Source of the DNA: an uncultured Alphaproteobacteria bacterium
GTDB taxonomy: Bacteria; Pseudomonadota; Alphaproteobacteria; HIMB59; GCA-002718135
Assembly (NCBI GenBank): GCA_902561355.1
Contig: CACEPG010000002.1
Location: forward strand, 8,607 to 72,606
Length of the DNA stretch: 64,000 nt
Direction of reading: 5' to 3'
Shown piece after piece: positions 38,894 through 63,407 of the stretch (the stretch's first letter is position 1; the number at the start of each line of letters is the position of its first letter). The notes under the pieces were generated by a model. That model searched no databases. It worked only from the letters and a program-made list of their open reading frames with translations, and had not been told where the DNA came from. The position numbers were made by a program, and so were the translations under genes.

Positions 38894-38944
38894 AATACTT
38901 TCATTAATGATTAATAATTAATAAGTAAACATACACTCATATTT

Positions 38945-41538: not shown

Positions 41539-41558
41539 AATAATATATATAATATTGA

Positions 41559-41574
41559 TTGAATAAGCATTCAA
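41559..41574 (+). promoter_or_regulatory. operator/promoter cassette TTGAAT-AAGC-ATTCAA (copy 3)
   Basis: A perfect 6-4-6 palindrome in the 55-bp Rieske/DAO divergent spacer. Its first T lies exactly 35 nt before the ATG at 41594. TATAAA follows after a 17-nt spacer. Confidence 0.55.
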
Positions 41575-41593
41575 TGAAATTTATAAATTACTG

Positions 41594-42928: not shown

Positions 42929-42933
42929 ACAAA

Positions 42934-43980: not shown

Positions 43981-43996
43981 AAAAGAAAGAATAGAT

Positions 43997-46241: not shown

Positions 46242-46264
46242 ATAAATTTATATGAAAAAAATAA

Positions 46265-46280
46265 TTGAATGTCTATTTAA
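46265..46280 (+). promoter_or_regulatory. degenerate copy of the TTGAAT-N4-ATTCAA cassette (TTGAAT-GTCT-ATTTAA, copy 4)
   Basis: It has one mismatch to the palindrome and lies in the 58-bp GS-like/amidase divergent spacer. Its first T is again exactly 35 nt before the ATG at 46300. The -10-like element is weak. Confidence 0.3.
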
Positions 46281-46299
46281 TTAAATTAAAGCAATATCT

Positions 46300-47843: not shown

Positions 47844-47859
47844 TTTATTGGGGGGTAAA

Positions 47860-48970: not shown

Positions 48971-49007
48971 AATAGCCTGTTCTCTTTTTGAGGGCGGGCT
49001 ATTTTTT
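48971..49007 (+). terminator. rho-independent terminator of the SBP gene
   Basis: The plus-strand RNA forms a 14-bp stem (48971-48984 with 48990-49003, three G-U pairs) and a 5-nt loop. The stem's last pair (A48971-T49003) begins the T-run 49003-49007. The structure contains the stop codon of the convergent ATPase gene. Confidence 0.75.
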
Positions 49008-50081
49008 ATTCAATAAAGAAATATCTTCTAAACTAATACTTATAAAGCACTCGTTATTTTCAAAAGATTGGTTGTCAAAATGTTGTGAAGAAACAGTGAT
49101 AGTCTTATCTATTCCTTTAACTTCAACGTAAAATCTAGTCATTTCTCCTAAATATGAAGTCTGTCTAATCTTAGCATCAAGACAAATATCCCAATCGGAT
49201 TTCACTTTTGAAATCATCATAGATTCTGGGCGAACACTACAAACAACATCAGAAGAATTTGCTGCGATATTTAAATTATTTTTAATTTTAAATTCTCCCA
49301 ATTCTTCGATTGAAACATTGGTGAATCCTCCATCACTTGATTTAGTCTCAGCTTTAAGAAAATTTGTTTCACCTATAAAATCACTTACAAATATATTTTT
49401 TGGATTCTTATAAAGTTCGTTGGGTGCTGATAATTGTTGAATTTTTCCATCATTCATAACTGCAACTCTGTCTGACATACTTATGGCTTCTTGTTGATCA
49501 TGAGTGACAAATACAAAAGTAATTCCAATATTTTTTTGAAGCGTTCTTAATTCTAATTGCATTTCATCTCTTAGTTTTTTATCTAAAGCACCTAGAGGTT
49601 CATCTAATAATAGAACTTTTGGTTGCCTTACTAAAGCTCTAGCAAGAGCAACACGCTGTCTTTGACCACCAGATAGTTGATTGCTAAACCTTTCTTCATA
49701 GCCCTCAAGCTTTACTAATTTAAGAACATCTTTAACTCTATTACCTATCTCATCATGACTTAAACCAAGTTTTCTTAGTCCAAATTTAATATTTTTTTCA
49801 ACATTAAGATGAGGAAAAATTGCATAGTTTTGAAAAACCATATTTGTAGGTCTTTTGTCTGGAGGTAATGCTGTAATATCTATCCCATCAATTAATAGAT
49901 TTCCAGAAGTTGGATATTCAAATCCTGCCAATAACCTCAACAATGTTGTCTTACCACATCCGGAAGGTCCTAAAAGTGAAAAAAATTCACCTTCTTTAAT
50001 CTCAAATGAAACATCATCAACTGCTTTTACATCTGCAAAGTGTTTTGAAATATTATTGATTTGTATAAATGAATTATTCAT
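48999..50081 (-). CDS. ABC-transporter ATP-binding protein, PotA-like
   Basis: Has Walker A GPSGCGKTT, the signature LSGGQRQRVALARAL and Walker B LLLDEP. A C-terminal TOBE-like regulatory domain follows. Confidence 0.9.
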   Translation of the reverse strand: MNNSFIQINNISKHFADVKAVDDVSFEIKEGEFFSLLGPSGCGKTTLLRLLAGFEYPTSGNLLIDGIDITALPPDKRPTNMVFQNYAIFPHLNVEKNIKFGLRKLGLSHDEIGNRVKDVLKLVKLEGYEERFSNQLSGGQRQRVALARALVRQPKVLLLDEPLGALDKKLRDEMQLELRTLQKNIGITFVFVTHDQQEAISMSDRVAVMNDGKIQQLSAPNELYKNPKNIFVSDFIGETNFLKAETKSSDGGFTNVSIEELGEFKIKNNLNIAANSSDVVCSVRPESMMISKVKSDWDICLDAKIRQTSYLGEMTRFYVEVKGIDKTITVSSQHFDNQSFENNECFISISLEDISLLNKK

Positions 50082-50087
50082 AGTTTT

Positions 50088-50897
50088 TTATAATTTCACA
50101 GCTATATCTTTCTTTGCTTTACCTTGTCCAACATTTCTTAACCAGAATGCTAACAAAACAATAAAAGTAGTAAAAACAATAATTACTGCTCCTAATGCCA
50201 GTACATGAGGTAACTTCTGAACAAATCTCATTTGACCCCACATATACATAGGTAACGTTGCATCACTTCCAGTTAAAAAAAATGCAAGAATAAATTCATC
50301 AAAAGAAATTATGAAACTTAGAAGAAGAGCGGCGACTATACCAGGCAAATATAATGGAAATGACACTCTAAAAAATGTTCCCCACGCATTTTCTCCTAAA
50401 TCCCTAGAGGCCTCTTCAAGTGAAAAATCAAAACCTTCAATACGGGCTATAAGTATTAACATTGCAAAAGGTGTACAAAATAAAGTGTGGCCAATTGTTA
50501 CTGGGACAAGTCCCAATTTAAATCCAAGATTGATCCAAATTATCAGTATAGCTACAGCCAAGATAATTTCAGGTATCAAAAATGGCATCATTATACCTCC
50601 ATAAGAAATCTTTTCCCCTCTAAATTTATATCGAGCAAATGCCTTTGCTGCAAATAGTGCAATTGTTGTACTAATGACACTCGCAACAACTCCTACTTTT
50701 ATACTTGCCCATAGAGCCTTATGTAGATTTCTTTTTGACCACATCTCTTCATAGTGCTCCGTTGTAAATCCAGCGAGAGGGAATGACATATAATTTGCAT
50801 CGTTAAAACTAAATATAGGTAAGAATAAAACTGGCACATAAAGAAATACAAAATAAAGAAGGGTATAAATCAGTAATGTATTATTTTTTTCGTTCAT
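50088..50897 (-). CDS. ABC-transporter permease, PotC-like
   Basis: Six transmembrane helices with the EAA loop EEASRDLGENAWGTFFRVSFPLYLPG. Confidence 0.85.
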   Translation of the reverse strand: MNEKNNTLLIYTLLYFVFLYVPVLFLPIFSFNDANYMSFPLAGFTTEHYEEMWSKRNLHKALWASIKVGVVASVISTTIALFAAKAFARYKFRGEKISYGGIMMPFLIPEIILAVAILIIWINLGFKLGLVPVTIGHTLFCTPFAMLILIARIEGFDFSLEEASRDLGENAWGTFFRVSFPLYLPGIVAALLLSFIISFDEFILAFFLTGSDATLPMYMWGQMRFVQKLPHVLALGAVIIVFTTFIVLLAFWLRNVGQGKAKKDIAVKL

Positions 50898-50899
50898 TT

Positions 50900-51784
50900 T
50901 TAAGTTAACCTTTGTGTAAGTCTTTTTGTTACATTCGACACAATTATTGTTATGAGTATAACAGTTGTTAACATAATTGTAGCTGAAGCTGCGCCAAGAG
51001 GAATATTATTTATTTTTCCAAAGTAAGCCTGGATCATATTCGAAAGCATACGACCATCAGTTCCTCCAAGTAAGGCTGGAGTGACATAATCACCTACTGT
51101 AGGAATGAATATGATTAATATCGCTCCTATTACACCAGGTAAAGATAATGGAAATGTAATTTTCCAAAAAACTTCAAATCGAGAGAGTCCAAGATCTCTT
51201 CCTGCTTCAATAAACGAAAAGTCAATTTTTTCTAACGAAACATATAAAGGTAGTAATGCAAATGCTGCCCATGCGTGAGTAAGAGTAATAACTACTGCGG
51301 TTTCTGAATACATAAGAAATGTAAGAGGTTCGCTGAGAATTCCAGCGTTGATCAATGAAGAGTTTATAACTCCTTTTGTTCCAAGAATAATCTTCCAAGA
51401 AAATACTCTTAATAAATAAGATGTCCAAAAAGGCAAAGTGAGCAAAACAAGCCACAACATTTTGTTTTTTTTAACATAAAAAGCGATGTAATAACAAACT
51501 GGGTATGCTGTGATCAGTGTAATTAAAGTTACAAGAAATGATATTTTAATAGACTTTATGAGAAGTGTGACCAGCAAATTTTTTTGAAAGAAATCAATAT
51601 ATCTTTGAAAAGTAAAAGTATAGTCTATCTCCATCATGTTAACTTGAGTAAACATACTAAAGCTCAACATTAGTGCCATTGGTACGACCATAGCCAAAAT
51701 AATTAAAATTAAAGCTGGTGATAATAAAGTATAAGCTTTAACATTATCATTTTTAGCATAAATTTTTCTCCAAAAACCTATCAT
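50900..51784 (-). CDS. ABC-transporter permease, PotB-like
   Basis: Six transmembrane helices with the EAA loop IEAGRDLGLSRFEVFWKITFPLSLPG. Confidence 0.85.
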   Translation of the reverse strand: MIGFWRKIYAKNDNVKAYTLLSPALILIILAMVVPMALMLSFSMFTQVNMMEIDYTFTFQRYIDFFQKNLLVTLLIKSIKISFLVTLITLITAYPVCYYIAFYVKKNKMLWLVLLTLPFWTSYLLRVFSWKIILGTKGVINSSLINAGILSEPLTFLMYSETAVVITLTHAWAAFALLPLYVSLEKIDFSFIEAGRDLGLSRFEVFWKITFPLSLPGVIGAILIIFIPTVGDYVTPALLGGTDGRMLSNMIQAYFGKINNIPLGAASATIMLTTVILITIIVSNVTKRLTQRLT

Positions 51785-51804: not shown

Positions 51805-52983
51805 TTATTCAATTAAAGATTTCAAACCTCGTTTATAAAGAGAATTTGCAATAATAATTCTATGAATTTCACTTGTTCCTTCCCAAATACGGTCCACTCT
51901 TAATTCTCTATAATAACGCTCTGCAACATTCTCTCTCATATATCCTCTTCCACCAAAAATCTGCACTGCACGATCAGCAATTCTATTAGCCATTTCAGAT
52001 GCAAGTAATTTAATCATAGAACATTTTCCATGTAAAATTTTTACATCTTGTTTTGCATCATGAGCTTTGCAAACCTCATAAAGCATTAATCGAGTTGAAG
52101 CTAATTCATTTACACTATCTGCTAACATGAATTGTATAGCTTGATAGTTTGAAATTTTATCACCAAAAGATTCTCTTTCTTTTGCAAAAATTGTTGCTTC
52201 ATCAATTAATCTTTGAGCAGCCCCGCAGCATCTTGCAGCTATACCTAGTCTTTCATGCCTAAACCAGGAATGCGTATAATCCATGCCAATACCTTCATTA
52301 CCAATTATTTTTTTTTCTGAAATTGAAACATTATCAAACCTATAAATAGAATGATGATGTGCATATGTATGACTAAACTTAGGACTATCTATTAACTCAA
52401 TACCTTTCTCATCCTTATCAATTATAAATAGTGAATGCTTGCCCTCATTTGAACCAGATTTAATTTTTGCCTGTAAAAAGAAAAAATCAGCTAGATTTGC
52501 ACTTGTAACATACCATTTTTCGCCATTAATAATATATTGATCTCCCTTTTTTTCTGCTGTTGTTTCAATTGAGCCTTCCACATCTGAACCTGCGCCTTTT
52601 TCTGTAATCGCATAACATTCTTTTTTAGTACCGTTTAAAAGTGGTTTAAAATAATTTTCTTTTTGATAATCAGTAAAATTATTTTCCATCCAATCCTGAG
52701 CTTCTGAAAAACACCAGCATAATGCATTTGTAACTCGGCCTAATTGTTCCCAAACTATCATCTGTTCAAACATATTTAATCCCAAGCCTCCGCTTTCTTT
52801 TGAAATACCCATACCCGGCAAACCTAGTGAAATAGCAATCTCCCGATGTTTTTTTTCAATTTCCTTGGGTAACTCACCTTCATTTTTTTCTGCATGCACC
52901 TCCCAAGGAATTAATTCATCATTAACAAATTTTTTTATCTTTAATTGCCATTCCAAAGCTTTTGGTGTCATGCCGCTATACAT
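51805..52983 (-). CDS. acyl-CoA dehydrogenase family protein
   Basis: Has YAITEKGAGSDV and the C-terminal string YYRELRVDRIWEGTSEIHRIIIA. It is 392 aa and lies 2 nt downstream of the TetR gene. Confidence 0.85.
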   Translation of the reverse strand: MYSGMTPKALEWQLKIKKFVNDELIPWEVHAEKNEGELPKEIEKKHREIAISLGLPGMGISKESGGLGLNMFEQMIVWEQLGRVTNALCWCFSEAQDWMENNFTDYQKENYFKPLLNGTKKECYAITEKGAGSDVEGSIETTAEKKGDQYIINGEKWYVTSANLADFFFLQAKIKSGSNEGKHSLFIIDKDEKGIELIDSPKFSHTYAHHHSIYRFDNVSISEKKIIGNEGIGMDYTHSWFRHERLGIAARCCGAAQRLIDEATIFAKERESFGDKISNYQAIQFMLADSVNELASTRLMLYEVCKAHDAKQDVKILHGKCSMIKLLASEMANRIADRAVQIFGGRGYMRENVAERYYRELRVDRIWEGTSEIHRIIIANSLYKRGLKSLIE

Positions 52984-52985
52984 TG

Positions 52986-53624
52986 TTAAAACATTCCCTT
53001 AAATTGTTTGGGGAAATTAGATTTAATAAACTCAAAACATATTTTCTTTGCTTGTATCCTGTTAAAAGTATCAGGATCTTCAAGTTGATCCAACCATAAT
53101 CCCATAATCAAAGCTTGAAATCCTCTAGAAATATTTTTTTTAGATAATTTCACTTTTTCTTTTTTTATAAGTTCATCAAATATATTTTCAGTTAAAGATT
53201 GGTAATACATATCTCGTTCTTTACAAATTTGATGATAAGCAGGTTTATATTTAATTTCACTAAAAAAAGTAAACCACACTGAAATTTTTTCTCTAGTGCA
53301 AATTTTTTTACTAAAATCATTTTCTACAATTCCAATGATTTTTTTTCTTGGATCATTACCTTTTTTTGCAATACTTCTTTGAAATGAATCTAGATACTCG
53401 TTAGAAATATATTTTAATGTTTCTATTAATAAAAGTTCCTTACTTTTAAAATGAAAATTTACTATACCTTGGGAAAGACCTGCTCCCTGTGATACATCTT
53501 GCATAGTTAATTCATTTATTCCTTTTTTTGATAAATTTTTAATTGTTGAAGAAATTAATTTTAAATTACTATTTTTCTTATTTTCTGATCTAAGATTTCT
53601 TTGTTTCATATTTAATAAATTCAT
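52986..53624 (-). CDS. TetR-family transcriptional regulator (BetI-like ligand domain)
   Basis: The N-terminal HTH is ELTMQDVSQGAGLSQGIVNFHFKSKELLLIETL. The C-terminal strings ISVWFTFFSE...KP.Y and FQALIMGLWLDQL resemble E. coli BetI as I recall it (KAWLAFWASS...QP.LY, ALIDGLWLRAAL). Confidence 0.8.
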   Translation of the reverse strand: MNLLNMKQRNLRSENKKNSNLKLISSTIKNLSKKGINELTMQDVSQGAGLSQGIVNFHFKSKELLLIETLKYISNEYLDSFQRSIAKKGNDPRKKIIGIVENDFSKKICTREKISVWFTFFSEIKYKPAYHQICKERDMYYQSLTENIFDELIKKEKVKLSKKNISRGFQALIMGLWLDQLEDPDTFNRIQAKKICFEFIKSNFPKQFKGMF

Positions 53625-53665: not shown

Positions 53666-53681
53666 TTGAATGCTCATTCAA
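53666..53681 (+). promoter_or_regulatory. operator/promoter cassette TTGAAT-GCTC-ATTCAA (copy 1)
   Basis: A perfect 6-4-6 palindrome in the 76-bp TetR/flavoprotein-operon divergent spacer. Its first T lies exactly 35 nt before the ATG at 53701. Confidence 0.6.
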
Positions 53682-53700: not shown

Positions 53701-55329
53701 ATGAACAAAACTAAATATGATGTTGCTATAATTGGTGGTGGTCATAATGGATTAACCACAGCTTGTTATTTGGCTAAGGCGGGTCTCAAAGTCATTGTTG
53801 TGGAACGACATGAATATGTTGGAGGCGCAGCTGTTAGCAGAGAATTGCATCCAGGTTGGACTTATTCTAATTGCTCATATGTTTGCAGCTTATTAAGACC
53901 TGAGATATTTAGAGATTTAGAATTATCAAAACATGGGCTTCAAATTATACCTTATGAAGGTAGTGCGAGTATGCTTAATGATGGTAGATTTTATGCACAT
54001 TATCAAGATCATGATTTAACTTACAGATCTATCGCTCAATTTTCAAAAAAAGATGCTGAAGCCTATGATAGGTTTGGCAAAGATGTAATGAGGCAATGCA
54101 AAATTATCAAACCTCTTTTAAAAATGACTCCTCCTGACCCTACTTCTTTTAAACCAAAAGATATTATGGGTCTTTTTGAATTTGCAAAATACTTTGCAGC
54201 TAAAGATGAGCTTGGTGGTTTAGGTGAAAAAGAAATTTACGACACCATAAGATTTTGGACAATGAGCGTAAGAGATTATTTAGAAGAATATTTTGAATCA
54301 GATATAGTAAAAGTACATTTAGCTGGATCTGCAATAATAGGTACAGCGCTTGGGCCTTATTCCCCTGGTTCAGCTTATGTATTATTACATCATTACATGG
54401 GAGAAGTAGATGGGACTGTTGGAGCATGGGGGTATTCCAGAGGAGGAATGGGCTCGATTACAAAAGCTATGGCGTCATCTTTAAAATCAAACAATGGTGA
54501 AATAAAAGCAGGTTCACCAGTAAGTCAGATTCTTATCAAAAATAACAAAAGTTATGGACTTGTTCTTGAGAATGGTGATGAAATTTATGCAGATAAAATA
54601 GTTTCTAACCTTGATGTAAAAAGAACTTTTTTAAAAGTTGTAGAAGAAAAAGAATTACCTAGTGATTTTTATAAAGCTGTTAAAAATTTTAAAATTAGAG
54701 GCTCATCAGGAAAATTAAATATTGCTCTTGATGATCTTCCTATTTGGAAGAGTATTCCAGTTGGTGATCCTGCTGGCACTGGTGATCTGCATATAACGCA
54801 AAACATAGAAGAGATGGAAGGAGCTTACGATGATTGGAAGGATGGTAAGTGGTCACAATTTCCTTATGTTGATATGTGCATTCCAAGCATCAATGATCCA
54901 ACTATGGCACCACAAGGAAAACATTATATGTCTGTATTTATTCAATATGTACCCTACAATTTAGCTAATGGAGGTTGGACTGAGGAGAAACGTCTTGAAT
55001 TTGGTAAACATGTAATGAATAGAATTGGCAATTACTCCACAAACTTTAATGATATTATCAATCATGCAGAAATTAGAACTCCTAAAGAAATAGAAGCTGA
55101 GGTTGGTTTAACTGAAGGCAATATATTCCAAGGCGAACTAACCATGGACCAATTAATGTTTAATCGTCCAGTACCTGGTTATGCTCAATATAAGACACCG
55201 ATCAAAAATCTATATATGTGTGGATCAAGCACGCATCCTGGCGGAGGTGTTATGGGTGCACCTGGAGTTAATGCAGCAAGAGAAATATTAAAAGATTTAA
55301 AGATGAAAATATCAACACATTACATATGA
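53701..55329 (+). CDS. NAD(P)/FAD-dependent oxidoreductase, CrtI/amine-oxidase superfamily, PYROXD2-like
   Basis: Has YDVAIIGGGHNGLTTACYLAKAGLKVIVVERHEYVGGAA and CSYVCSLLRPEIFRDLELSKHGL, the latter close to the human PYROXD2 string as I recall it. The C-terminal string is LYMCGSSTHPGGGVMGAPG. Length is 542 aa. Confidence 0.8.
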   Translation: MNKTKYDVAIIGGGHNGLTTACYLAKAGLKVIVVERHEYVGGAAVSRELHPGWTYSNCSYVCSLLRPEIFRDLELSKHGLQIIPYEGSASMLNDGRFYAHYQDHDLTYRSIAQFSKKDAEAYDRFGKDVMRQCKIIKPLLKMTPPDPTSFKPKDIMGLFEFAKYFAAKDELGGLGEKEIYDTIRFWTMSVRDYLEEYFESDIVKVHLAGSAIIGTALGPYSPGSAYVLLHHYMGEVDGTVGAWGYSRGGMGSITKAMASSLKSNNGEIKAGSPVSQILIKNNKSYGLVLENGDEIYADKIVSNLDVKRTFLKVVEEKELPSDFYKAVKNFKIRGSSGKLNIALDDLPIWKSIPVGDPAGTGDLHITQNIEEMEGAYDDWKDGKWSQFPYVDMCIPSINDPTMAPQGKHYMSVFIQYVPYNLANGGWTEEKRLEFGKHVMNRIGNYSTNFNDIINHAEIRTPKEIEAEVGLTEGNIFQGELTMDQLMFNRPVPGYAQYKTPIKNLYMCGSSTHPGGGVMGAPGVNAAREILKDLKMKISTHYI

Positions 55330-56792
55330 AAAAATTTGATGTCATAATAATTGGTGGAGGTCACAATGGATTAGTTGCATCTTCATACTTATCAAAAAAA
55401 GGAAAAAAAGTTTTGGTAATTGAAAAAAACGAAAACGTTGGAGGATTAGCGGAATATGCAGAATCACTAAACTGTATCTCACCAATCATTAAAAAAGAAT
55501 TAGGGATTAATGTTAATAATATTAATCATTCAAATAATATTATATCACTAGAGGATAATCAAAATCATACTATTTTGTCAGATAAAAACGGCAAATTATC
55601 TTTTGTTCAAACCAATGCTGATGAAAATGATCAAAAGAAATTCTTGTCAATTATCAATAACTACAAATTGTTTTCAAAAACTCTTGGTGCATTTATGTTT
55701 CAAAAACCACCAAGAGTTAAATCAGGTAAAAGAGCTGACTTATTTCAATTAATTTCTATGGGATGGAAAATTAGAAAATTAGGTAAAAAAAATATGCGTG
55801 AACTATTAAGAGTAATTGGTTTAAATATCGCAGATGACTTAGAAGATAATTTAAATAGCAATAATCTAATGGGTCTATTATCCCATGAAGCTGTTTTGGG
55901 AACAAATCTAGGTCCAAGATCTCCAGGTTCAATATTAACTTTACTTTATAAACAAGCTATCAATGACAATATTTTTAATTTAAACAAAATAGAAGTTGCA
56001 GAATATATTAATCAATTAGAAGATTGCTGTAATAAAAATACTGTTGAAATCATTAAATCCTCTGAAGTTAAAAAAATATTAACTCAAAATAACTCTGTGA
56101 CTGGTGTTCAATTAACAAATGGCGAGGTTTTTGAATCAAAATATGTGATGTCTAATGCTGACCCTAAAACAACTTATTTAAATTTATTAGGTGCAGAAAT
56201 CCTAGATACTGATTTTATTAGAAGAACTAAAAATTTTAGAAATAAAGGAAATGTCGCTAAGCTTGAATTAGCGTTAGAAAATGAAATTAACATTAATAAT
56301 ATTGATAAAAAAATGAACGGAAAGTTTATTTATGCTCCTGGTATTAAGTACATAGAACATGCATTTAATGCTAATAAATATAACAAATATTCTGAAAATC
56401 CATGCCTTGAGTTTTACGTTAATCAAAAAACCTTATCAGCTAATGTTTATTATGTTCCGTATTTAATTAATACTAATCATAAAGAAAATGAAATAATTGA
56501 AAGATGTGTTTCAGTTTTAAGTAAATTTATTCCAGATATGAAAATAGTAAAACAAAAACTCATCACTCCCAATAAAATGGAAGAAAAGTTTAATATAACA
56601 GGAGGGCATTGGCATCACGGTGATTTAGAAATAGATCAATTATTAATGATGAGACCTTTTTATGGATCAGCTCAATATTCTACACCTATAAATGGTTTAT
56701 ATTTATGTGGTGCAGGAACCCATCCTGGAGGGGGAGTAACAGGTATCAACGGTCTTAATGCTGCAAAAAAAGTAATAGAGGATTTAAAATAA
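55326..56792 (+). CDS. second CrtI/PYROXD2-like FAD-dependent oxidoreductase (diverged paralogue)
   Basis: Has FDVIIIGGGHNGLVASSYLSKKGKKVLVIEKNENVGG and the C-terminal string LYLCGAGTHPGGGVTGINGLNAA. It has an ATGA overlap with the upstream paralogue. It is much more AT-, K- and N-rich than that paralogue. Confidence 0.75.
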   Translation: MKKFDVIIIGGGHNGLVASSYLSKKGKKVLVIEKNENVGGLAEYAESLNCISPIIKKELGINVNNINHSNNIISLEDNQNHTILSDKNGKLSFVQTNADENDQKKFLSIINNYKLFSKTLGAFMFQKPPRVKSGKRADLFQLISMGWKIRKLGKKNMRELLRVIGLNIADDLEDNLNSNNLMGLLSHEAVLGTNLGPRSPGSILTLLYKQAINDNIFNLNKIEVAEYINQLEDCCNKNTVEIIKSSEVKKILTQNNSVTGVQLTNGEVFESKYVMSNADPKTTYLNLLGAEILDTDFIRRTKNFRNKGNVAKLELALENEININNIDKKMNGKFIYAPGIKYIEHAFNANKYNKYSENPCLEFYVNQKTLSANVYYVPYLINTNHKENEIIERCVSVLSKFIPDMKIVKQKLITPNKMEEKFNITGGHWHHGDLEIDQLLMMRPFYGSAQYSTPINGLYLCGAGTHPGGGVTGINGLNAAKKVIEDLK

Positions 56793-57994
56793 TGAATACA
56801 TCAAAAATATCATACAAAAAACCTCTCTTAGAGACACCTTTTCACGAAAGAACATCTGAGCATTGTTATGCAAATGATTGGTATAGATGGGCTGGTTATA
56901 AAGTTGCTAAAGAGTACTCATCAACAGAACTTGAGTATACTTCAATGAGAAATACAGCTGGGGTAATTGATATTACTCCTATGCATAAATATGATATCAA
57001 AGGTGAGGATGCTAAAAAGTTTATTAATAAATTAATCACAAAAGATATTACTAATATTCAATCAAACCAAGTTGCCTATGGCATATGGTGCAATGAAGAT
57101 GGAATGGTAATTGATGATGGAACAATATTTTGCTTTAATGAAAATCATTTTAGAATTTTTTGTGCAGAACGAAATCTAAATTGGTTTTCTGACACAGCTA
57201 CGGGATTTAATGCAAGTGTTGAGGATATAAGTCCATCAATTGCCGCTTTAGCTTTTCAAGGGCCATTATCTTGTAAGATATTAAATTTATTAAAAGTAGA
57301 AAATATAGAAAACCTAAAACCATTTCATTTTAATAATTATAATATTGAAAATCATAATGTTACAATTTCCAGAACAGGTTTTTCTGGAGACTTAGGTTAT
57401 GAAATATGGTGTGACCCTTCTCAAGCCATTGATGTATGGGATAGTTTATTTAAATTTAATAGAGACTATAAAGTACTAGCAGCTGGAATGAATGCACTTG
57501 AGATGGTCAGAATTGAAGCTGGTTTTATCCAACCTAATGTAGATTTTATGTCTGCGGAACAAGCTTTAAGACCCAATAGAATGAGAAACCCCTATGAATT
57601 AGGTTTGGGCTGGTTAGTAAATCTAGATAAAGAGTATTTTACTGGAAAACAGGCATTAATTAGACACAAAGAAAAAGGTCCTGAAAAAAAACTCGTGGGA
57701 TTAGATATTGAAGGAGATAAACCTGCCGTTGGTTCTGTACTCTACGATAATAGTAAAAAAAATCAAGCCAAAGAAATTGGTATAGTGACAGCTGCAATGT
57801 GGTCCCCTGTCCTTAAATCTAATATTGCGATTGGATTTGTTAGCAAAGAACATTATAAATTAGGATCAAATGTTTATGCTGAAATTTATCATCCAGAAGA
57901 GCTGGATTACAGAAAAATTTGGGCTGAATGTAAAGTGGTTAAAAAGCAATTTTTTAACAATCCAAGAAGAAATGAAACACCTGCGTTTACATAA
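56792..57994 (+). CDS. stand-alone aminomethyltransferase (GcvT/DmdA-fold, folate-binding) family protein
   Basis: Has MRNTAGVIDITPMHKYDIKGEDA and ISRTGFSGDLGYEIW (compare GcvT ISRTGYTGEDGFEI). It is 400 aa and has a TAATG overlap with the upstream gene. Confidence 0.8.
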   Translation: MNTSKISYKKPLLETPFHERTSEHCYANDWYRWAGYKVAKEYSSTELEYTSMRNTAGVIDITPMHKYDIKGEDAKKFINKLITKDITNIQSNQVAYGIWCNEDGMVIDDGTIFCFNENHFRIFCAERNLNWFSDTATGFNASVEDISPSIAALAFQGPLSCKILNLLKVENIENLKPFHFNNYNIENHNVTISRTGFSGDLGYEIWCDPSQAIDVWDSLFKFNRDYKVLAAGMNALEMVRIEAGFIQPNVDFMSAEQALRPNRMRNPYELGLGWLVNLDKEYFTGKQALIRHKEKGPEKKLVGLDIEGDKPAVGSVLYDNSKKNQAKEIGIVTAAMWSPVLKSNIAIGFVSKEHYKLGSNVYAEIYHPEELDYRKIWAECKVVKKQFFNNPRRNETPAFT

Positions 57995-58000
57995 AGAATA

Positions 58001-59152
58001 ATGGAATTTAATCTTTCAGAAGAACAGAATCTTTTAATTGATACTACTAAGTCATTTGTAAAAGCAGAATTGCTTCAACACGAAGAATTATTAGAAAAAA
58101 CAAATAATTTACCAAAAGAATTGTATGATGAAATTAAGCAAAAAAGTATTAAAGCAGGTTTGTATGCTTGCAATATGCCCACTGAACATGGTGGTGGTGG
58201 TTTAAATGCTTTTGATTTAACTTTAGTTGAAAAACATCTCGGTTTTGCATCACTTGCTTTAGCGGAAGTTGCTTGGCGACCACAAAATATCTTAATGGCC
58301 TGTGAAGGTAAATTAATTGATGAATACTTAAAACCAGCTATCACAGGTGAGAGAAAAGATTGCATAGCAATGACAGAACCAGGAGCTGGTTCAGATTTAC
58401 GGGGGATGAAAACAAAAGCAGTTAAGGATGGTAATGATTGGGTGATTAATGGAACAAAACATTTTATATCTAATGCACACATATCTGACTTTGTAGTACT
58501 TTTTGCCTCAACAGGTGAAGATGAAAAAGGTAGAAATTTACTTTCGTGTTTCTTAGTTGATTTAAAACAAAAAGGAGTTGAGGTTGCAAAAGGTTATGAC
58601 TGTGTTTCTCACAGAGGATACGTTAATAATATTTTAAACTTTAATGATTGCAGAATTCCTGCAAGAAATATTCTTGGTGAAAAAGATAAAGGCTTTGAGC
58701 TAATGAATGTTTGGTTAGAAGCAACTCGTTTAACTGTTGCGGCAACTTCTGTATCTAGAGCCGAAAGAGCTTTTGATATAGCCTTGGATTGGTCTGCAAA
58801 TAGAAAACAATTTGGAAAAGTCATTGGAAAATTTCAGGGTGTTTCATTTAAATTAGCTGATATGGCTACAGAAATTAAACTAGCAAACTTGATATTAATG
58901 GAGTCTGCTTGGAAAATTGATCAAAAAACATTAACATCTCAAGATGCGGCTATGACAAAATTATTTTGTACTGAAATGTTAAGTAGAGTCTCTGATGAAG
59001 CTATTCAAATCCTTGGTGGAATGGGATTGATGTCAGATATTCCACTTGAAAGAATATGGCGAGATGCAAGAATAGAAAGAATTTGGGAAGGCACCAGTGA
59101 AATTCAACGTCATATTATTTCACGTTCACTTCTAAGACCCCTTGGAGCATAA
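58001..59152 (+). CDS. acyl-CoA dehydrogenase family protein (CaiA/DmdC-position)
   Basis: The N-terminus is MEFNLSEEQ. It also has AMTEPGAGSDL and the C-terminal string RDARIERIWEGTSEIQRHIISR. Length is 383 aa. Confidence 0.85.
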   Translation: MEFNLSEEQNLLIDTTKSFVKAELLQHEELLEKTNNLPKELYDEIKQKSIKAGLYACNMPTEHGGGGLNAFDLTLVEKHLGFASLALAEVAWRPQNILMACEGKLIDEYLKPAITGERKDCIAMTEPGAGSDLRGMKTKAVKDGNDWVINGTKHFISNAHISDFVVLFASTGEDEKGRNLLSCFLVDLKQKGVEVAKGYDCVSHRGYVNNILNFNDCRIPARNILGEKDKGFELMNVWLEATRLTVAATSVSRAERAFDIALDWSANRKQFGKVIGKFQGVSFKLADMATEIKLANLILMESAWKIDQKTLTSQDAAMTKLFCTEMLSRVSDEAIQILGGMGLMSDIPLERIWRDARIERIWEGTSEIQRHIISRSLLRPLGA

Positions 59153-59155
59153 TCT

Positions 59156-61192
59156 TTGAATTTAAAAAAACTTTTTAGACCAAAAAGTCTTGCTTTAGTT
59201 GGAGGGTATTGGGCAGACTTTGTTTATGATGGCAATAAAACTATTGGCTATCAAGGTAAAGTTTGGCATATAAATCCTTCACGTAAAAGCTCCAAAGCAA
59301 AAAAATATTATAAAAATATTAAAGATCTTCCAGAAGTACCTGATTGCGTTTATCTAGCTGTCTCAAGGGATCAAACAGTAAAATTAATAAAAGATATTGC
59401 TGACATAGGTGTTGGAGGTACTGTTTGTTTAGCTTCGAGATTTTCTGAACTTAATTCTAAAGAAGGTACAAATAAAACTAATGAGCTAATTAGGAATGCT
59501 GGCAAAATGCCTTTCCTTGGACCAAATTGTTATGGATTTATAAATTACTTGGATAGAATTTCAGTATGGTCTGATCAAGTAGCAGGCAAACCAACTAAAA
59601 AAGGTGTTGCTATTATATGTCAAAGTGGAACTATTGGTAATACGATTAGTTTTAATAATAGATCTTTACCAATTGGGTATATAATTTCTCTCGGCAATCA
59701 ATCACAAATAACGATAGAAGATGCCATTAATTATGCTTTAGATGATAAGAGAGTTACTGCTATTGGAATTTATGCTGAAAGTTTTACCAATACAGAAAAG
59801 TTAATAAAAGTATTTAAAAAATCCAGATTAAAAAAAATTCCTATAGCATTAGTTAAAGTAGGCAGATCTAAAACTGCGTCTAAAACAATATTAACACATA
59901 CTGGATCACTAAGCGGGAAAGAAGATATATATGATTCTTTATTTCAAAGAATGGGTGTGGCTAGATGTAATACATTAGGAGAGTTATGTGAAATTTTAAA
60001 ATTACTTCACACTCATGGTGCTTTAAATAACGATAAAATTTCAATTATGGGTCCATCAGGTGGTGATATGGCTATGATAGGAGACGTTGCAGAAACTTTA
60101 TCATTAAATTTTGGTAAAATACCTACAAAAATAAAAAATGAATTAAAAAAAGTTAATCACCCAAGTGTTATAATTTCAAATCCATTCGATCTACAAACAT
60201 ACAACTGGAATGACCCTAAGCAATTAGCAAAAACATTTAAATTAATATTTAAAACTAATTTTGGTTTAAATGCACTTATGCTAGATTTTCCAAATATAGA
60301 AGATTGTGACACTGCAGAATGGGATGCTATAGTAGATCAATTTATAAAATCATCAAAAATAAAAAAAAATGGAGCGATTATTTCTTCACTTTCAGATACC
60401 CTTCCTAAATATCTAAGAGAAAAATGTCTTAAGTCAGGAGTTGTTCCACTTCAGGGTATGTCAGAGAGTTTACTAGCCATAAGTAACTCAATAAAAATTT
60501 CAAAAGCTTGGAGTAATTTTAGTGAAATTAAAATTTCAAAAAAATTACAAAATCATAAAAAGAAAATTAAAACATTTTCAGAATATGAATCAAAATTAAT
60601 CCTAAAAAAATTTAAAATATCTACACCAAAATCTTTAATTACAAATAAAAAAAATATTTTGCGAGATTATAAAAAAATTGGATTTCCTTTAGTGGCAAAA
60701 ATACATTCAACTAAATTTTTTCATAAAACTGAAATTGGAGGTGTTATTATTAACATTAATAATGAAAAAGAATTAAAGCAAAAGACAAATAAATTTAGAG
60801 GCAATATCTTAATTGAAAAAATGATATCAAATTCGATTTTTGAAATGATAATAGGCATAAAAAATGATAGCCAATTTGGACCTACAATAATATTGGGGGC
60901 TGGTGGTATTTATACCGAATTATTTAAAGATACGACTACCTTACTTTTACCTTTAAATAAAAAAATAATTTTGGATGAAATAAAAAAACTTAAATTTAGC
61001 AAAATATTATTTGGTTTTAGAGGAAGTAATATTGCTGATATTGATGCATTAGTAAATACAATATTAAAAGTAGCTGTTTTTGCTGAAAAAAATTCAGATA
61101 AAATTTCAGAAGTTGATATAAATCCACTAATAGTTTGTAAAAAAGGTAAAGGTGTATTTGCTGTAGATGCTCTAATACATTATTTAATATAG
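59156..61192 (+). CDS. NDP-forming acyl-CoA synthetase (CoA-binding, succinyl-CoA-ligase-like and ATP-grasp domains fused)
   Basis: The N-terminus LFRPKSLALVGG marks the CoA-binding fold. It also has ICQSGTIG and HTGSLSG (phosphohistidine-loop type) and a C-terminal ATP-grasp string (PLVAKIHS...HKTEIGGV). It is 678 aa and uses a TTG start. Confidence 0.8.
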   Translation: MNLKKLFRPKSLALVGGYWADFVYDGNKTIGYQGKVWHINPSRKSSKAKKYYKNIKDLPEVPDCVYLAVSRDQTVKLIKDIADIGVGGTVCLASRFSELNSKEGTNKTNELIRNAGKMPFLGPNCYGFINYLDRISVWSDQVAGKPTKKGVAIICQSGTIGNTISFNNRSLPIGYIISLGNQSQITIEDAINYALDDKRVTAIGIYAESFTNTEKLIKVFKKSRLKKIPIALVKVGRSKTASKTILTHTGSLSGKEDIYDSLFQRMGVARCNTLGELCEILKLLHTHGALNNDKISIMGPSGGDMAMIGDVAETLSLNFGKIPTKIKNELKKVNHPSVIISNPFDLQTYNWNDPKQLAKTFKLIFKTNFGLNALMLDFPNIEDCDTAEWDAIVDQFIKSSKIKKNGAIISSLSDTLPKYLREKCLKSGVVPLQGMSESLLAISNSIKISKAWSNFSEIKISKKLQNHKKKIKTFSEYESKLILKKFKISTPKSLITNKKNILRDYKKIGFPLVAKIHSTKFFHKTEIGGVIININNEKELKQKTNKFRGNILIEKMISNSIFEMIIGIKNDSQFGPTIILGAGGIYTELFKDTTTLLLPLNKKIILDEIKKLKFSKILFGFRGSNIADIDALVNTILKVAVFAEKNSDKISEVDINPLIVCKKGKGVFAVDALIHYLI

Positions 61193-61200
61193 TTTAATTT

Positions 61201-61977
61201 ATGGACAAACCAGTTAAAACAAAAATTGAAGGATCAATATTAGAGATAACTATTGATCGACCAAAAGCTAATGCGATAGATGCTAAGACAAGTATAATGT
61301 TGGGAAATATATTTGCTGACTTTAGAGATAATCCAAAACTTAAAGTAGCTATCATTACAGGTGGCGGAGAAAAATTTTTTTCTGCCGGATGGGATCTAAA
61401 GGCTGTTAATGAAGGAGAGGCTGCTGATGCAGATTATGGTGTTGGTGGATTTGGAGGACTGCAAGAGTTACCTAATATGAACAAACCTATTATAGCAGCT
61501 GTTAATGGTATTGCGTGCGGTGGTGGTTTTGAAATTATGATTTCAGCAGATATTATAATTGCCGCAGAACACGCAACATTTGCGTTACCTGAAATCAATG
61601 TAGGAGTTGTAGCTGACGCAGCTACAATAAAATTAAGAAGACGTATACCCTATCACGTAGCTGTTGAGTTTTTAATGACTGGAAGATGGATGGATGTCAA
61701 AGAAGCAAAACACTGGGGTTTAGTAAATGAAATTGTTAAAACAAATGATTTATTAAAAAGAGCCTGGGAAATAGCTGATAAAATTTCAAAAGGACCTAAT
61801 TTAATTTATTCTTCAATTAAAGAAGTTTTAAGAGAAACAGAAAACGAAAAGGAAATACCATCATTTAAAATTTTGCGATCATTAGAATCAGTAAAAAAAG
61901 TTTATGGAAGTGAAGATCTAAAAGAAGGAGCTTCTTCTTTTGTTAAAAAAACAGATCCGAATTGGAAAGATAAATAG
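61201..61977 (+). CDS. crotonase-family hydratase, closely CaiD-like (carnitinyl-CoA dehydratase / crotonobetainyl-CoA hydratase type)
   Basis: [21 protein letters not shown] and [39 protein letters not shown] are almost colinear with E. coli CaiD as I recall it ([60 protein letters not shown]). An alignment is needed to confirm this. Confidence 0.8.
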   Translation: [258 protein letters not shown]

Positions 61978-62030: not shown

Positions 62031-63407
62031 ATGAAAAATGATTATGTTAGTGAAATCCATAAGAAAGATAAACTTGTTCTCCATCCATATGAAGATATGG
62101 AAAGTAGAGGAACTTATGACCGTAAACTTATTGTAAAATCAGATAATATTTATCTTTATGATGAAAATGGAAAAGAATACATTGATGGACCTGGAGGTAT
62201 GTGGTGTAATAACATAGGGCACGGAAATAAAGAGATAGGTGAGGCTGTTAAAAATCAACTAGAAAAAATGGAATATTGCAGCCCTTTTTCAGAATCTAGT
62301 GAAATTTCTGCTGAATTAGCTTCTGTTCTATCTGAATTGTCTCCTGGAGATCTTAATACAGTTTTTTTTACTACTGATGGCTCTACAGCCAATGATACTG
62401 CTCTAAGATTTATTATGTTTTATAATAACATATTAGGCAGACCTAATAAAAAACACTTTATCACTAGGCATAAAGCTTATCATGGAAGCACTTATCTTAC
62501 AGGATCAATAACAGGCAAAGATAGGGAAAAAAATAATTTTGATTTTGAAAAAAATTTCATTCATCATTTGAGTTCACCTCTTGCTTATAGAAGAAAAAAA
62601 AACCAAACAATTCAAGAATTTTGTGATGAACTTGTAAAAGAATTTGAAGATAAAATAATAGAATTAGGATCAGAAAATGTTGCAGCTTTTATTGCTGAAC
62701 CAGTCATGGCTTCAGGTGGTTGTATAGTCCCTCCTGAAGGATATTTAAAAAGAATTTGGCAAATATGCAAAAAATATGATGTTTTATATATTTCTGATGA
62801 AGTAGTTACAGGGTTTGGAAGAATGGGTCATTTTTTTTCTTCTGAAGAAGTTTTTGAAATAGTTCCTGATATTATAACTTGTGCTAAGGGAATTACATCA
62901 GGATATATGCCTCTTGGAGCTGTCTTATTTTCTGACAAATTACTAAATGATATTAAAAAAGAATCTGCACTTTTTTTTCACGGCTATACTTATTCAGGAC
63001 ATCCTGCATGTTGTGCTGCAGCATTAAAAAACATAGAAATTATTGAACGAGATAAAATTCTTGAACATGTTCAAGAAATTGAACCCTACTTTCATAATAA
63101 ATTACAAAAATTGTATGAATTACCAATTGTTGGAGATGTAAGAGGTAAAGGATTAATGGCAGGCATAGAATGTGTAATAAATAAAGATAGTAAGGAAGCA
63201 CTTATTTTAGATAAAGCTATAGGATCAAGAATTGATGAGGAATCAATTAAATTAGGCTTAATTATTAGACCGCTCTATCATATTTGTGTTTTATCTCCTG
63301 CTTTAATAATTACAAAATCACAAATTGATGATCTTGTTGAAAAATTATTTACTGCTATTCAAAATTCTCTTCAACAACTTAAAACAGAAGGTTTATGGAA
63401 AGATTAA
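62031..63407 (+). CDS. class-III (omega-amino acid / diamine : pyruvate or 2-oxoglutarate) aminotransferase
   Basis: Has GGMWCNNIGHG, ISDEVVTGFGRMG and the PLP-Lys context ITCAKGITSGY. Length is 458 aa. Confidence 0.85.
   Translation: MKNDYVSEIHKKDKLVLHPYEDMESRGTYDRKLIVKSDNIYLYDENGKEYIDGPGGMWCNNIGHGNKEIGEAVKNQLEKMEYCSPFSESSEISAELASVLSELSPGDLNTVFFTTDGSTANDTALRFIMFYNNILGRPNKKHFITRHKAYHGSTYLTGSITGKDREKNNFDFEKNFIHHLSSPLAYRRKKNQTIQEFCDELVKEFEDKIIELGSENVAAFIAEPVMASGGCIVPPEGYLKRIWQICKKYDVLYISDEVVTGFGRMGHFFSSEEVFEIVPDIITCAKGITSGYMPLGAVLFSDKLLNDIKKESALFFHGYTYSGHPACCAAALKNIEIIERDKILEHVQEIEPYFHNKLQKLYELPIVGDVRGKGLMAGIECVINKDSKEALILDKAIGSRIDEESIKLGLIIRPLYHICVLSPALIITKSQIDDLVEKLFTAIQNSLQQLKTEGLWKD

Follow-up and report, generated by a model that had tools for sequence, protein, structure and literature searches.

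A conserved trio of two PYROXD2-like flavoproteins and a GcvT-like protein as a candidate tetrahydrofolate-linked N-demethylase module in marine bacteria

We analysed a 64,000-nucleotide stretch of contig CACEPG010000002.1 (assembly GCA_902561355.1; hereafter the window) from an uncultured alphaproteobacterium, in which three consecutive genes encode two FAD flavoproteins, FlvA and FlvB, and a GcvT-like protein (Table 1). An earlier note on this DNA had predicted that the three form a tetrahydrofolate (THF)-linked amine N-demethylase and had described them as chained by an ATGA and a TAATG overlap. Both overlaps are present exactly where it placed them, the first between FlvA and FlvB (55326-55329) and the second between FlvB and the GcvT-like gene (56790-56794). 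In public annotations the trio proteins appear only as “phytoene dehydrogenase-like”, “NAD(P)/FAD-dependent oxidoreductase” or “aminomethyltransferase family protein”, and no published description or database annotation of a FlvA-FlvB-GcvT module was found in the literature and annotations searched.

Table 1 Features of the trio and of the genes around it in the window (FAD, flavin adenine dinucleotide; ACAD, acyl-CoA dehydrogenase; C1, one-carbon).
Feature	Position	Strand	Basis or remark
DAO-family FAD oxidoreductase, second copy	37571-38893	-	PF01266
Rieske oxygenase alpha subunit, quaternary-amine N-demethylase type	40306-41574	-	Rieske + Ring_hydroxyl_A
DAO-family FAD oxidoreductase (pipecolate/sarcosine-oxidase-like)	41594-42928	+	PF01266 full length
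PotD/F-family binding protein	47848-48948	+	SBP_bac_8; PotF/PotD similarity weak
potA/C/B ABC (ATP-binding cassette) importer genes	48999-51784	-	adjoin binding protein
ACAD1, acyl-CoA dehydrogenase family	51805-52983	-	ACAD domains; downstream of TetR gene
BetI-like TetR regulator	52986-53624	-	TetR_N + BetI-type TetR_C_6; divergent from FlvA
Perfect palindrome TTGAATGCTCATTCAA (7+2+7), predicted operator	53666-53681		between TetR gene and FlvA
FlvA, PYROXD2-like FAD flavoprotein, 542 aa; proposed catalytic amine-oxidising subunit	53701-55329	+	PF01593, PYROXD2 alignment
FlvB, divergent FlvA paralogue, 488 aa; proposed partner subunit or second-step oxidase	55326-56792	+	FAD motifs, own substitutions
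GcvT-like folate-binding protein, stand-alone GcvT fold, 400 aa; proposed C1 acceptor	56792-57994	+	GCV_T + GCV_T_C
ACAD2, acyl-CoA dehydrogenase	58001-59152	+	Acyl-CoA_dh N, M and C domains; 6 nt after GcvT-like gene
ADP-forming acyl-CoA ligase	59156-61192	+	CoA_binding_2, Succ_CoA_lig, ATP-grasp_5
CaiD-like enoyl-CoA hydratase	61201-61977	+	best NCBIfam crotonobetainyl-CoA hydratase
Class-III amine:pyruvate-type aminotransferase	62031-63407	+	NF005447 667.9 bits, over 618 cutoff

The three genes travel together. A scan of species-representative genomes yielded approximately 580 stretches that encode FlvA relatives, and 80 loci were kept (given L numbers here). FlvB and the GcvT-like gene lie directly 3' of FlvA in all 65 of the loci with at least 2.9 kb of downstream DNA. 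In nearly all of 44 loci the junctions measure -4 or -1 nt between FlvA and FlvB and -8 to +7 nt between FlvB and the GcvT-like gene, with the few larger negative values stemming from naive longest-ORF (open reading frame) start calls. The coupling reported in the earlier note is thus kept across orders, with genes that overlap or nearly abut: carriers include HIMB59-like bacteria, Pelagibacteraceae, Rhodospirillales, Hyphomicrobiales, Rhodobacterales, Woeseia and other Gammaproteobacteria, as well as plasmids of cultured Rhizobium, Shinella, Ensifer, Parasedimentitalea and Fuscovulum. Across orders FlvA is the most conserved member (61-73% identity), followed by the GcvT-like protein (41-56%) and FlvB (32-43%). 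The arrangement is more than chance, and such strict three-gene coupling suggests a fixed stoichiometry.

The window itself has a GC content of 28-32%. By tblastn its FlvA protein is identical to that of the uncultured marine alphaproteobacterium single-cell genome AG-426-C22, and close relatives of the locus carry the label “MarineAlpha5”; the window and these relatives belong to the group that we take to be HIMB59-like. Some clusters at 90% identity, both for FlvA and for the linked binding protein, contain from several hundred to ~1,100 metagenomic members.

Both flavoproteins pass the gathering cutoff (19.8 bits) of the Pfam Amino_oxidase family PF01593, with 60.1 bits for FlvA and 39.8 bits for FlvB. 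Matches to the DAO family (PF01266) are confined to residues 7-54 of FlvA and 5-39 of FlvB, that is, to the Rossmann motif, and other Rossmann families likewise match only the first ~50 residues. The two proteins are 29% identical (E = 7e-62), which agrees with the description in the earlier note of a duplicated flavoprotein of the CrtI/amine-oxidase superfamily that is not of the DAO type. The FAD motifs of FlvA (IIGGGHNGL, E35, GG41-42 and H512-P-G-G-G) are all retained in FlvB (GxGxxG, E, GG and HPGGG), which nevertheless keeps only 57% of the columns that are invariant in FlvA and PYROXD2. Members of the FlvB clade have substitutions of their own: in 12-13 of 13 sequences H-W-H takes the place of N474-I-F, and in 9-10 of 13 Tyr-Arg takes that of H230-H231. 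In a neighbour-joining tree the FlvA and FlvB clades are each monophyletic (100% and 99% bootstrap, respectively), and the same well-supported groups are recovered in the FlvA and FlvB trees. FlvB is therefore divergent, not degenerate, and the duplication is old; the pattern of substitutions would fit either a dedicated partner subunit or a second oxidase with another substrate. A metagenomic protein of 904 aa (P0103) was considered as an FlvA-FlvB fusion and rejected as most likely a frameshift or assembly artefact: it consists of the C-terminal two-thirds of FlvA, a garbled stretch of ~40 residues and a complete FlvB.

The comparison with PYROXD2 was made with database proteins, found through ape PYROXD2 entries that a human query sequence matched at 98%. 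FlvA aligns with mouse PYROXD2 (P0224) over its full length at 38% identity (381 bits, E = 1e-130), and with CrtI (4DGK) at E = 1.7e-17, whereas FlvB aligns with PYROXD2 at 24% identity (E = 1e-43). The PYROXD2 strings that had been recognised in the first paralogue are real: “IGGGHNGL” and “SYVCSLLRPEIFRDLELSKHGL” of FlvA align to “IGAGHNGL” and “SYLLSLLRPQICTDLELKKHGL” of mouse PYROXD2, and 112 alignment columns, including the GGNIFxG...DQLxFxRP stretch, are invariant in 13 FlvA and 3 PYROXD2 sequences. The full-length homology stands, and it is on phylogeny that the link to PYROXD2 drawn in the earlier note has to be loosened. FlvA is not the sister of PYROXD2, which joins a Sphingobium-type protein with 82% bootstrap in the neighbour-joining tree, a rough one in which deeper nodes are not resolved and CrtI serves as the outgroup. 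Likewise, the best plasmid match of mouse PYROXD2 is of the Sphingobium type at 43.5% identity, with FlvA-type proteins at 38-41%. Because PYROXD2 groups with another bacterial clade, FlvA is its close relative and not its orthologue.

This relationship matters since no reaction is assigned to PYROXD2 in the literature searched up to mid-2026. The protein is a mitochondrial flavoprotein with links to a severe metabolic disorder of infancy and to strong metabolite quantitative trait loci (mQTLs). Its locus associates with urinary trimethylamine (TMA) and dimethylamine (DMA) (PMC3169529), as the earlier note had stated. Human PYROXD2 mQTLs also include N6-methyl- and N6,N6-dimethyl-lysine derivatives, and together these associations point to N-methylated amines. 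The up-regulation of Pyroxd2 in Gldc copy-number mice was set aside as evidence: it occurs in all mutant genotypes and may therefore be a background effect.

The fold of FlvA resembles that of carotenoid enzymes. A single-chain AlphaFold2 model without FAD has a predicted TM-score (pTM) of 0.84, with per-residue confidence (pLDDT) under 50 at residues 227-242, 472-478 and 510-516, around the likely active site. Its nearest solved folds are a CrtD-like desaturase (4REP; TM 0.76/0.83) and CrtI (4DGK), and next come NicA2, 6-hydroxynicotine oxidase, putrescine oxidase and monoamine oxidase (MAO), a ranking that cannot tell C-N from C-C oxidising chemistry; there is no solved structure within the PYROXD2-like clade. 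The best NCBIfam models are also of the CrtO/CrtI family, all below cutoff (CrtO, 283.8 versus 1000; crtI_fam, 107.9 versus 238.1; CrtD, 76 versus 580). CrtI, CrtD and CrtO thus have an FAD-binding architecture in common with FlvA and FlvB, but identity to them is only 16-18%, their model scores are far under the cutoffs and, in the neighbour-joining tree, a very long branch sets CrtI apart from all of the PYROXD2-like group. Neither the ORFs of the island (37.5-63.4 kb) nor the related loci that we examined include carotenoid genes (crtB, crtE or crtY). A carotenoid desaturase, which the earlier note had weighed against its own prediction, was rejected on these scores and on this neighbourhood, whose context is methylated-amine or betaine catabolism and not carotenoid synthesis.

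The third protein is a stand-alone GcvT-like protein, as had been noted from the sequence, with GCV_T (190.5 bits) and GCV_T_C (41.6 bits) Pfam domains. Its best NCBIfam match is the C-terminal domain of Tdm at 251 bits, short of the Tdm model cutoff of 1100. The models for true GcvT (TIGR00528, 187.3 versus 235.85; NF001567, 228.2 versus 300) and for DmdA (NF009133, 165.9 versus 410) also score under their cutoffs, as does SoxA, and LigM/DesA match too; the protein was accordingly rejected both as a true T-protein and as DmdA. No gcvH or gcvP was found among the annotated neighbours of the gene. The protein aligns to the folate domains of 1VRQ, 2GAG, 4P9S and 1PJ5. Folate-binding residues, on which the THF-linked prediction depends, are present: Y83, D95-D96, E195 and R231 (numbering of the Thermotoga maritima T-protein 1WOO) are retained, and are conserved in at least 95% of 42 trio-linked GcvT-like sequences. 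In T-proteins these positions are folate-site and catalytic residues, with the Asp near folate N10 and the Glu binding the pterin. Relative to 1WOO, R227 is replaced by Leu and Y100 by Phe, as in Tdm (9Q59).

GcvT-fold proteins do not all serve oxidative demethylation, and the three proteins might instead divide the labour without forming a complex. The GcvT-like protein would then be a DmdA-type redox-neutral methyltransferase that forms 5-methyl-THF by passing on to THF one methyl group of an osmolyte of the quaternary ammonium or sulfonium type, and FlvA and FlvB would be separate oxidases that each remove one remaining methyl as free formaldehyde: three proteins for three methyls. The GcvT fold does include methyl-THF-forming demethylases, and both DmdA (165.9 bits) and LigM/DesA match. 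The conserved active-site residues that FlvB has as its own, in a site that is not degenerate, would also be expected, and the CoA ligase, ACAD and hydratase downstream parallel DmdB, DmdC and DmdD functionally. Furthermore, gene fusions gave no evidence for a complex: when 1.84 billion representatives were searched exhaustively with phmmer for matches to the GcvT-like protein, the best 150 included no flavoprotein fusion, and the long matches were a tandem GcvT, Tdm-like proteins and an IclR fusion. However, the GcvT-like protein is nearer to the Tdm C-terminal domain and the T-protein (251 and 228 bits) than to DmdA (166), and it keeps the Asp-Asp pair that in T-proteins provides the catalytic Asp. 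In many loci the trio is already found with a Rieske oxygenase of the quaternary-amine demethylase type, and the strict coupling of the three genes suggests a fixed stoichiometry. We consider this division of labour unlikely.

The genes around the trio place it in a setting of methylated-amine or betaine catabolism: a BetI-like TetR regulator, a Rieske oxygenase of the quaternary-amine demethylase type, an amine transaminase and an importer. The divergent TetR gene lies upstream of FlvA in 55 of 75 loci. BetI models score 106.3 (cutoff 201.3) and 101.3 (cutoff 118) against the window protein, which by curated cutoffs thus falls short of BetI. The palindrome TTGAATGCTCATTCAA is probably the operator of this repressor, judging by its position and recurrence: HIMB59-like and Pelagibacteraceae loci, and several more from alpha- and gammaproteobacteria (L001-L036, L052, L055, L062 and L081), have an (A)TTGAAT-N4-ATTCAA(T) box upstream of FlvA. 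On the far side of the TetR gene, ACAD1 has counterparts of 54-63% identity in the same place in nine loci from outside the HIMB59-like bacteria and the Pelagibacteraceae.

Downstream of the trio the array continues with gaps of 3-53 nt, and a site scan gave no terminator-like site on the + strand between 53.7 and 63.4 kb; a promoter scan was uninformative in this 30% GC DNA (51 sites versus 61.9 expected). The best NCBIfam model for ACAD2 is acryloyl-CoA reductase (269.5 bits), followed by crotonobetainyl-CoA dehydrogenase (185), all below cutoff. The CaiD-like hydratase scores 297 bits with the crotonobetainyl-CoA hydratase model (cutoff 500), the next crotonase models reaching 205. The aminotransferase finds its best PDB match in 3I5T (E = 3e-130), a characterised amine transaminase, and its orthologue lies 3' of the GcvT-like gene in Pelagibacteraceae and many other loci. 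Homologues of the ADP-forming CoA ligase occur 3' of the GcvT-like gene in Woeseia and other loci. Among the closest relatives of the window this ligase is 64-68% identical in most (66% in L001) and 83-89% in three, while the genes that flank it are mostly ~84-97% identical; the ligase gene is either hypervariable at this spot or has been replaced. Downstream of the GcvT-like gene the window and L001 diverge, despite identical FlvA proteins.

The trio forms the right-hand part of a ~26 kb amine-catabolism island, the upstream part of which (37571-47775) contains two DAO-type oxidases, two PuuA-like glutamine-synthetase homologues, the Rieske oxygenase, an agmatine deiminase, an N-carbamoylputrescine amidase and a further amidase. 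The latter gene (46300-47775) lies between a PuuA-like gene and the binding protein. Of the relatives compared (L001-L014) some have it, as does the window, and others lack it, including L001, whose FlvA is a 100% match to that of the window. The Rieske oxygenase scores 334 bits with the GbcA model, below the cutoff of 670. Its best PDB matches are 3N0Q and the stachydrine demethylase Stc2 (4QUP/3VCA), and the same family lies near the trio in 27 loci. The two DAO copies score 148.7 and 190.6 bits with a pipecolate-oxidase model, below cutoff; a DAO orthologue lies between the Rieske gene and potB in Pelagibacteraceae. Other trio loci also have genes for DAO-type oxidases, StcD/DgcA-like flavoproteins of the old yellow enzyme (OYE) type, a PuuC-like aldehyde dehydrogenase and a GntE-like transaminase.

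A similar set of genes is found in a Pelagibacteraceae single-amplified genome (SAG; CACKFU010000008.1, locus L091), where FlvA, FlvB, GcvT, the aminotransferase, the Rieske oxygenase, an 84-aa ORF, the DAO-type oxidase, potB, potC and potA follow one another in the same direction, with a convergent binding-protein gene after them. The window binding protein is 85% identical to the one in this array. The 84-aa ORF (10797-11051 in L091) has no Pfam match; given its place between the Rieske oxygenase and the DAO-type oxidase, it may encode a small subunit or an electron-transfer partner. In the window the mechanically called binding-protein ORF has 366 aa from a TTG at 47848, and close homologues have 358-362 aa, so the true start is probably the ATG four codons downstream (MPKYY...). 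The cassette of binding protein and potABC exists as two alleles, ~50-69% identical, that are swapped among relatives with FlvA proteins 89-97% identical (L004, L005, L008-L010 and L012-L015). Against Pelagibacteraceae (L016-L040) the window potB, potC and potA products reach 94% identity, mostly 80-94% with ~65-70% in two loci, well above the 72-73% of FlvA, which suggests lateral exchange of the transporter between HIMB59-like bacteria and SAR11. In SAR11, the “PotD” protein SAR11_1336 binds glycine betaine (dissociation constant, Kd, of 2 nM), dimethylsulfoniopropionate (DMSP) and other osmolytes, and not polyamines (PMC11485210).

These surroundings also invite a polyamine reading, in which FlvA and FlvB would cut the chain-side C-N bond of spermidine, norspermidine or N-alkylated amines to an aldehyde and a smaller amine, with the GcvT-like protein only an accessory. 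SAR11 metabolises spermidine and norspermidine with no known cleaving enzyme (PMC8437039), a missing step that such a reaction could fill. Both flavoproteins pass the Pfam Amino_oxidase model and have putrescine oxidase and MAO among their fold neighbours, and the island holds an agmatine deiminase, an N-carbamoylputrescine amidase, PuuA-, PuuB-, PuuC- and PuuD-like genes, SpuC-like transaminases and PotF-like binding proteins. In addition, chain-side cleavage of dimethylamino compounds would release free DMA and TMA, the amines with which PYROXD2 alleles are associated. On the other hand, cleavage of an unmethylated polyamine gives no C1 unit and so leaves the GcvT-like partner, invariant in 65 of 65 loci, unexplained. 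The BetI-type regulator and the Rieske quaternary-amine demethylase indicate methylated substrates, and the “PotD” of SAR11 is experimentally a binder of betaine and DMSP. No cultured-strain names appear among the ~100 members looked at, of ~1,000 in four Pelagibacteraceae-type FlvA clusters, and therefore the trio may be absent from the SAR11 strains of the polyamine study. In our view polyamine cleavage is distinctly unlikely.

Relatives of PYROXD2 outside the trio offer a further view of the family. A plasmid of Shinella sumterensis (NZ_CP132306.1; L084, 4035-13173) carries a single PYROXD2-like gene followed by gcvT, in a cluster with a CaiD-like hydratase, an ADP-forming CoA ligase homologous to that of the window, a carnitine-3-dehydrogenase-like gene, a class-II aldolase and a BKACE gene, and with no ACAD. 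The flavoprotein has 40.8% identity to FlvA, and 86% of the columns that FlvA and PYROXD2 hold invariant are retained in it. The cluster looks like an uncharacterised pathway of the carnitine or gamma-butyrobetaine type, and it is a second, independent pairing of a PYROXD2-like protein with GcvT, which supports the N-demethylase reading. It also bears out the link to betaine-CoA chemistry that the earlier note had drawn, as CaiD- and CaiA-like CoA genes recur with such pairs. On plasmid p5 of Rhizobium sp. NZLR1 (L085, 2321-13303), RidA precedes a PYROXD2-like gene, which is followed by genes for an ACAD, a deacetylase, an adenylate-forming enzyme, an amidase and a MaoC dehydratase; a gamma-aminobutyrate (GABA) transaminase, a succinate-semialdehyde dehydrogenase and electron-transfer flavoprotein (ETF) genes lie nearby. 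The RidA gene hints at an imine or enamine product. Eight of the nine other PYROXD2-like genes examined have no GcvT neighbour and sit among RidA, ACADs, CoA ligases, transaminases, aldehyde dehydrogenases and amidases. Combined with the Shinella pair, these neighbourhoods tie the wider family to amine and omega-amino-acid catabolism, and only some of its clades to folate.

Such neighbourhoods raise the question of whether FlvA and FlvB act on carbon instead, by desaturating, isomerising or otherwise oxidising the chain of an omega-ammonio acid or its CoA ester in the manner of CrtI. A step such as gamma-butyrobetainyl-CoA to crotonobetainyl-CoA would feed the CaiD-like hydratase, and the GcvT-like protein would act later in the pathway. 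The closest folds and the best NCBIfam models are indeed carotenoid desaturases and a ketolase, other PYROXD2-like genes adjoin CoA ligases, ACADs and hydratases, and in the ACAD-less Shinella cluster the PYROXD2-like enzyme could supply the missing desaturation. Yet in the window two ACADs already lie beside the trio, the carotenoid models score far below their cutoffs with no crt genes nearby, and many trio loci are without a CoA ligase, hydratase or ACAD (e.g., L081 and L082). Moreover, C-C desaturation leaves the adjacency to GcvT in two independent cluster types unexplained. We regard it as very unlikely.

Our combined findings lead us to give roughly an even chance to the reading that the trio is a THF-linked oxidative N-demethylase module for tertiary and secondary methylamines, built from an unusual flavoprotein family. 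In this module the neighbouring ABC system would import a methylated amine or betaine-type osmolyte. Flavin-dependent oxidation of an amine requires the lone pair of the nitrogen; when the nitrogen is quaternary, the Rieske oxygenase would take off the first methyl group. FlvA would then oxidise an N-methyl C-H of the resulting tertiary or secondary amine to an iminium ion, with FlvB either forming a heteromer with FlvA or carrying out the next demethylation step. On the GcvT-like protein, THF would attack the iminium ion or nascent formaldehyde to give 5,10-methylene-THF and the demethylated amine. The class-III aminotransferase may convert the final primary amine to an aldehyde or oxo acid, and in the window genome the ADP-forming CoA ligase, the acyl-CoA dehydrogenase and the CaiD-like hydratase may process the carbon skeleton further. 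The BetI-like TetR repressor, bound to the TTGAATGCTCATTCAA palindrome, would control the divergent promoters.

Several substrates are candidates, which we do not rank. Dimethylglycine and sarcosine derived from glycine betaine are suggested by the GbcA-like Rieske oxygenase and the probable betaine importer. The CaiD/CaiA-like genes, the omega-transaminase and the Shinella cluster suggest 4-(di)methylaminobutyrate or 3-(di)methylaminopropionate, with gamma-butyrobetaine or beta-alanine betaine as the source. N-methylated di- or polyamines are suggested by the PotF-like binding proteins and Puu-like genes; that these include units of the long-chain polyamines of diatoms is speculation.

A number of points weigh against N-demethylation. 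The case is wholly comparative. It shows the gene structure, the family memberships, the conservation of the trio and its surroundings, the recurrent palindrome and the retained FAD motifs and T-protein-type residues; from these we infer the substrate and its reaction, the complex, the role of the GcvT-like protein as C1 acceptor and that of the palindrome as operator. The nearest solved folds (4REP and 4DGK) are C-C desaturases, and among the NCBIfam models a carotenoid ketolase scores best; redox-neutral methyl transfer, as in DmdA and LigM, is likewise compatible with the GcvT fold. No flavoprotein-GcvT fusion appeared among the 150 best representatives in the phmmer search, and eight of nine other PYROXD2-like genes lack the GcvT neighbour. 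The orthology of the binding protein to the betaine-binding SAR11_1336 is likewise one that we infer, and the binding proteins of some loci are clearly of the PotF type (317-424 bits), which would speak for polyamines instead. Finally, folD and purU were not noticed near the trio, though no systematic search for them was made.

If the N-demethylase reading is correct, THF-coupled N-demethylation has evolved on a second flavoprotein scaffold, and a demethylation route so far unannotated would alter how the turnover of methylated osmolytes is read from marine omics data. The trio offers a concrete hypothesis for PYROXD2, namely oxidation of N-methyl groups on tertiary and secondary amines, given that a bacterial relative lies in an operon with a folate C1 acceptor, a betaine-type regulator, a quaternary-amine demethylase and an amine transaminase. 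Cultured carriers of the trio exist, among them Aestuariispira insulae CECT 8488 (L071), Parasedimentitalea marina W43 (plasmid pW43C, L082) and Rhizobium sp. SL42 (L081). Cultured SAR11 has a probable relative of the linked importer, with nanomolar affinity for the glycine betaine and DMSP that it takes up. A bolder extension, which we consider possible but doubtful, is that PYROXD2-like proteins are a general family of oxidative demethylases of N-methyl and N,N-dimethyl omega-amines, that the trio is a third THF-coupled architecture, that it is an important methyl route in bacterioplankton and that human PYROXD2 performs the same chemistry. The trio would then stand alongside the fused DAO-GcvT enzymes and SoxABGD, and the C1 pool of SAR11- and HIMB59-type bacterioplankton would receive methyl groups from betaine-type osmolytes or methylated polyamines in quantitatively important amounts. 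Human PYROXD2 would act on, for example, N6-methyl- and N6,N6-dimethyl-lysine, and this would explain the TMA, DMA and methyl-lysine mQTLs.

Among known systems, PYROXD2 itself differs from FlvA in having a targeting presequence, and we know of no paralogous partner or dedicated GcvT-like protein for it. LSD1/KDM1A is a PF01593 flavoenzyme for mono- and dimethyl epsilon-amines, which it oxidises to an iminium ion and formaldehyde; the PYROXD2-associated metabolites share this chemical motif. FlvA resembles it at superfamily level only, and LSD1 is absent from the top fold matches; unlike the trio, LSD1 acts on histone tails, has SWIRM and Tower domains and has no GcvT-fold partner. LSD1 is, however, reportedly a THF binder (in work attributed to Luka et al., 2011 and 2014). 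The generalisation in the earlier note that known THF-linked demethylases pair DAO flavoproteins with GcvT therefore needs this caveat, while its contrast with the non-DAO flavoproteins of the trio stands.

The array from the GcvT-like gene to the hydratase (56792-61977) mirrors the DMSP pathway in enzyme types, with a GcvT-fold protein, ACAD, CoA ligase and enoyl-CoA hydratase in place of DmdA, DmdC, DmdB and DmdD, respectively. However, the CoA ligase of the window is ADP-forming, whereas DmdB is AMP-forming, and the two flavoproteins have no Dmd counterpart. In Tdm (9Q59/9Q5A), the C-terminal GcvT domain captures formaldehyde with THF; this domain is the best match of the GcvT-like protein and has the R227-to-Leu and Y100-to-Phe changes in common with it, but its catalytic partner is a fused, metal-dependent N-terminal domain where the trio has flavoproteins.

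The closest parallel in proposed logic is with SoxABGD, dimethylglycine oxidase/dehydrogenase and sarcosine dehydrogenase, in which a flavoprotein oxidises the N-methyl group and a GcvT-fold site yields 5,10-methylene-THF. SoxD- or SoxG-like small subunits were not noticed near the trio, though no dedicated search for them was made. Those enzymes have a full-length DAO-type flavoprotein (PF01266), with the GcvT domain fused to it or within the alpha subunit. The trio, whose members belong to the PYROXD2-like clade and the GcvT fold family and are proposed to work like sarcosine oxidase, dimethylglycine oxidase or Tdm, appears to lack the features that define those systems, a full-length DAO-type domain and a fusion; instead it has a duplicated flavoprotein of the CrtI/amine-oxidase superfamily and a GcvT-fold protein as a separate polypeptide.

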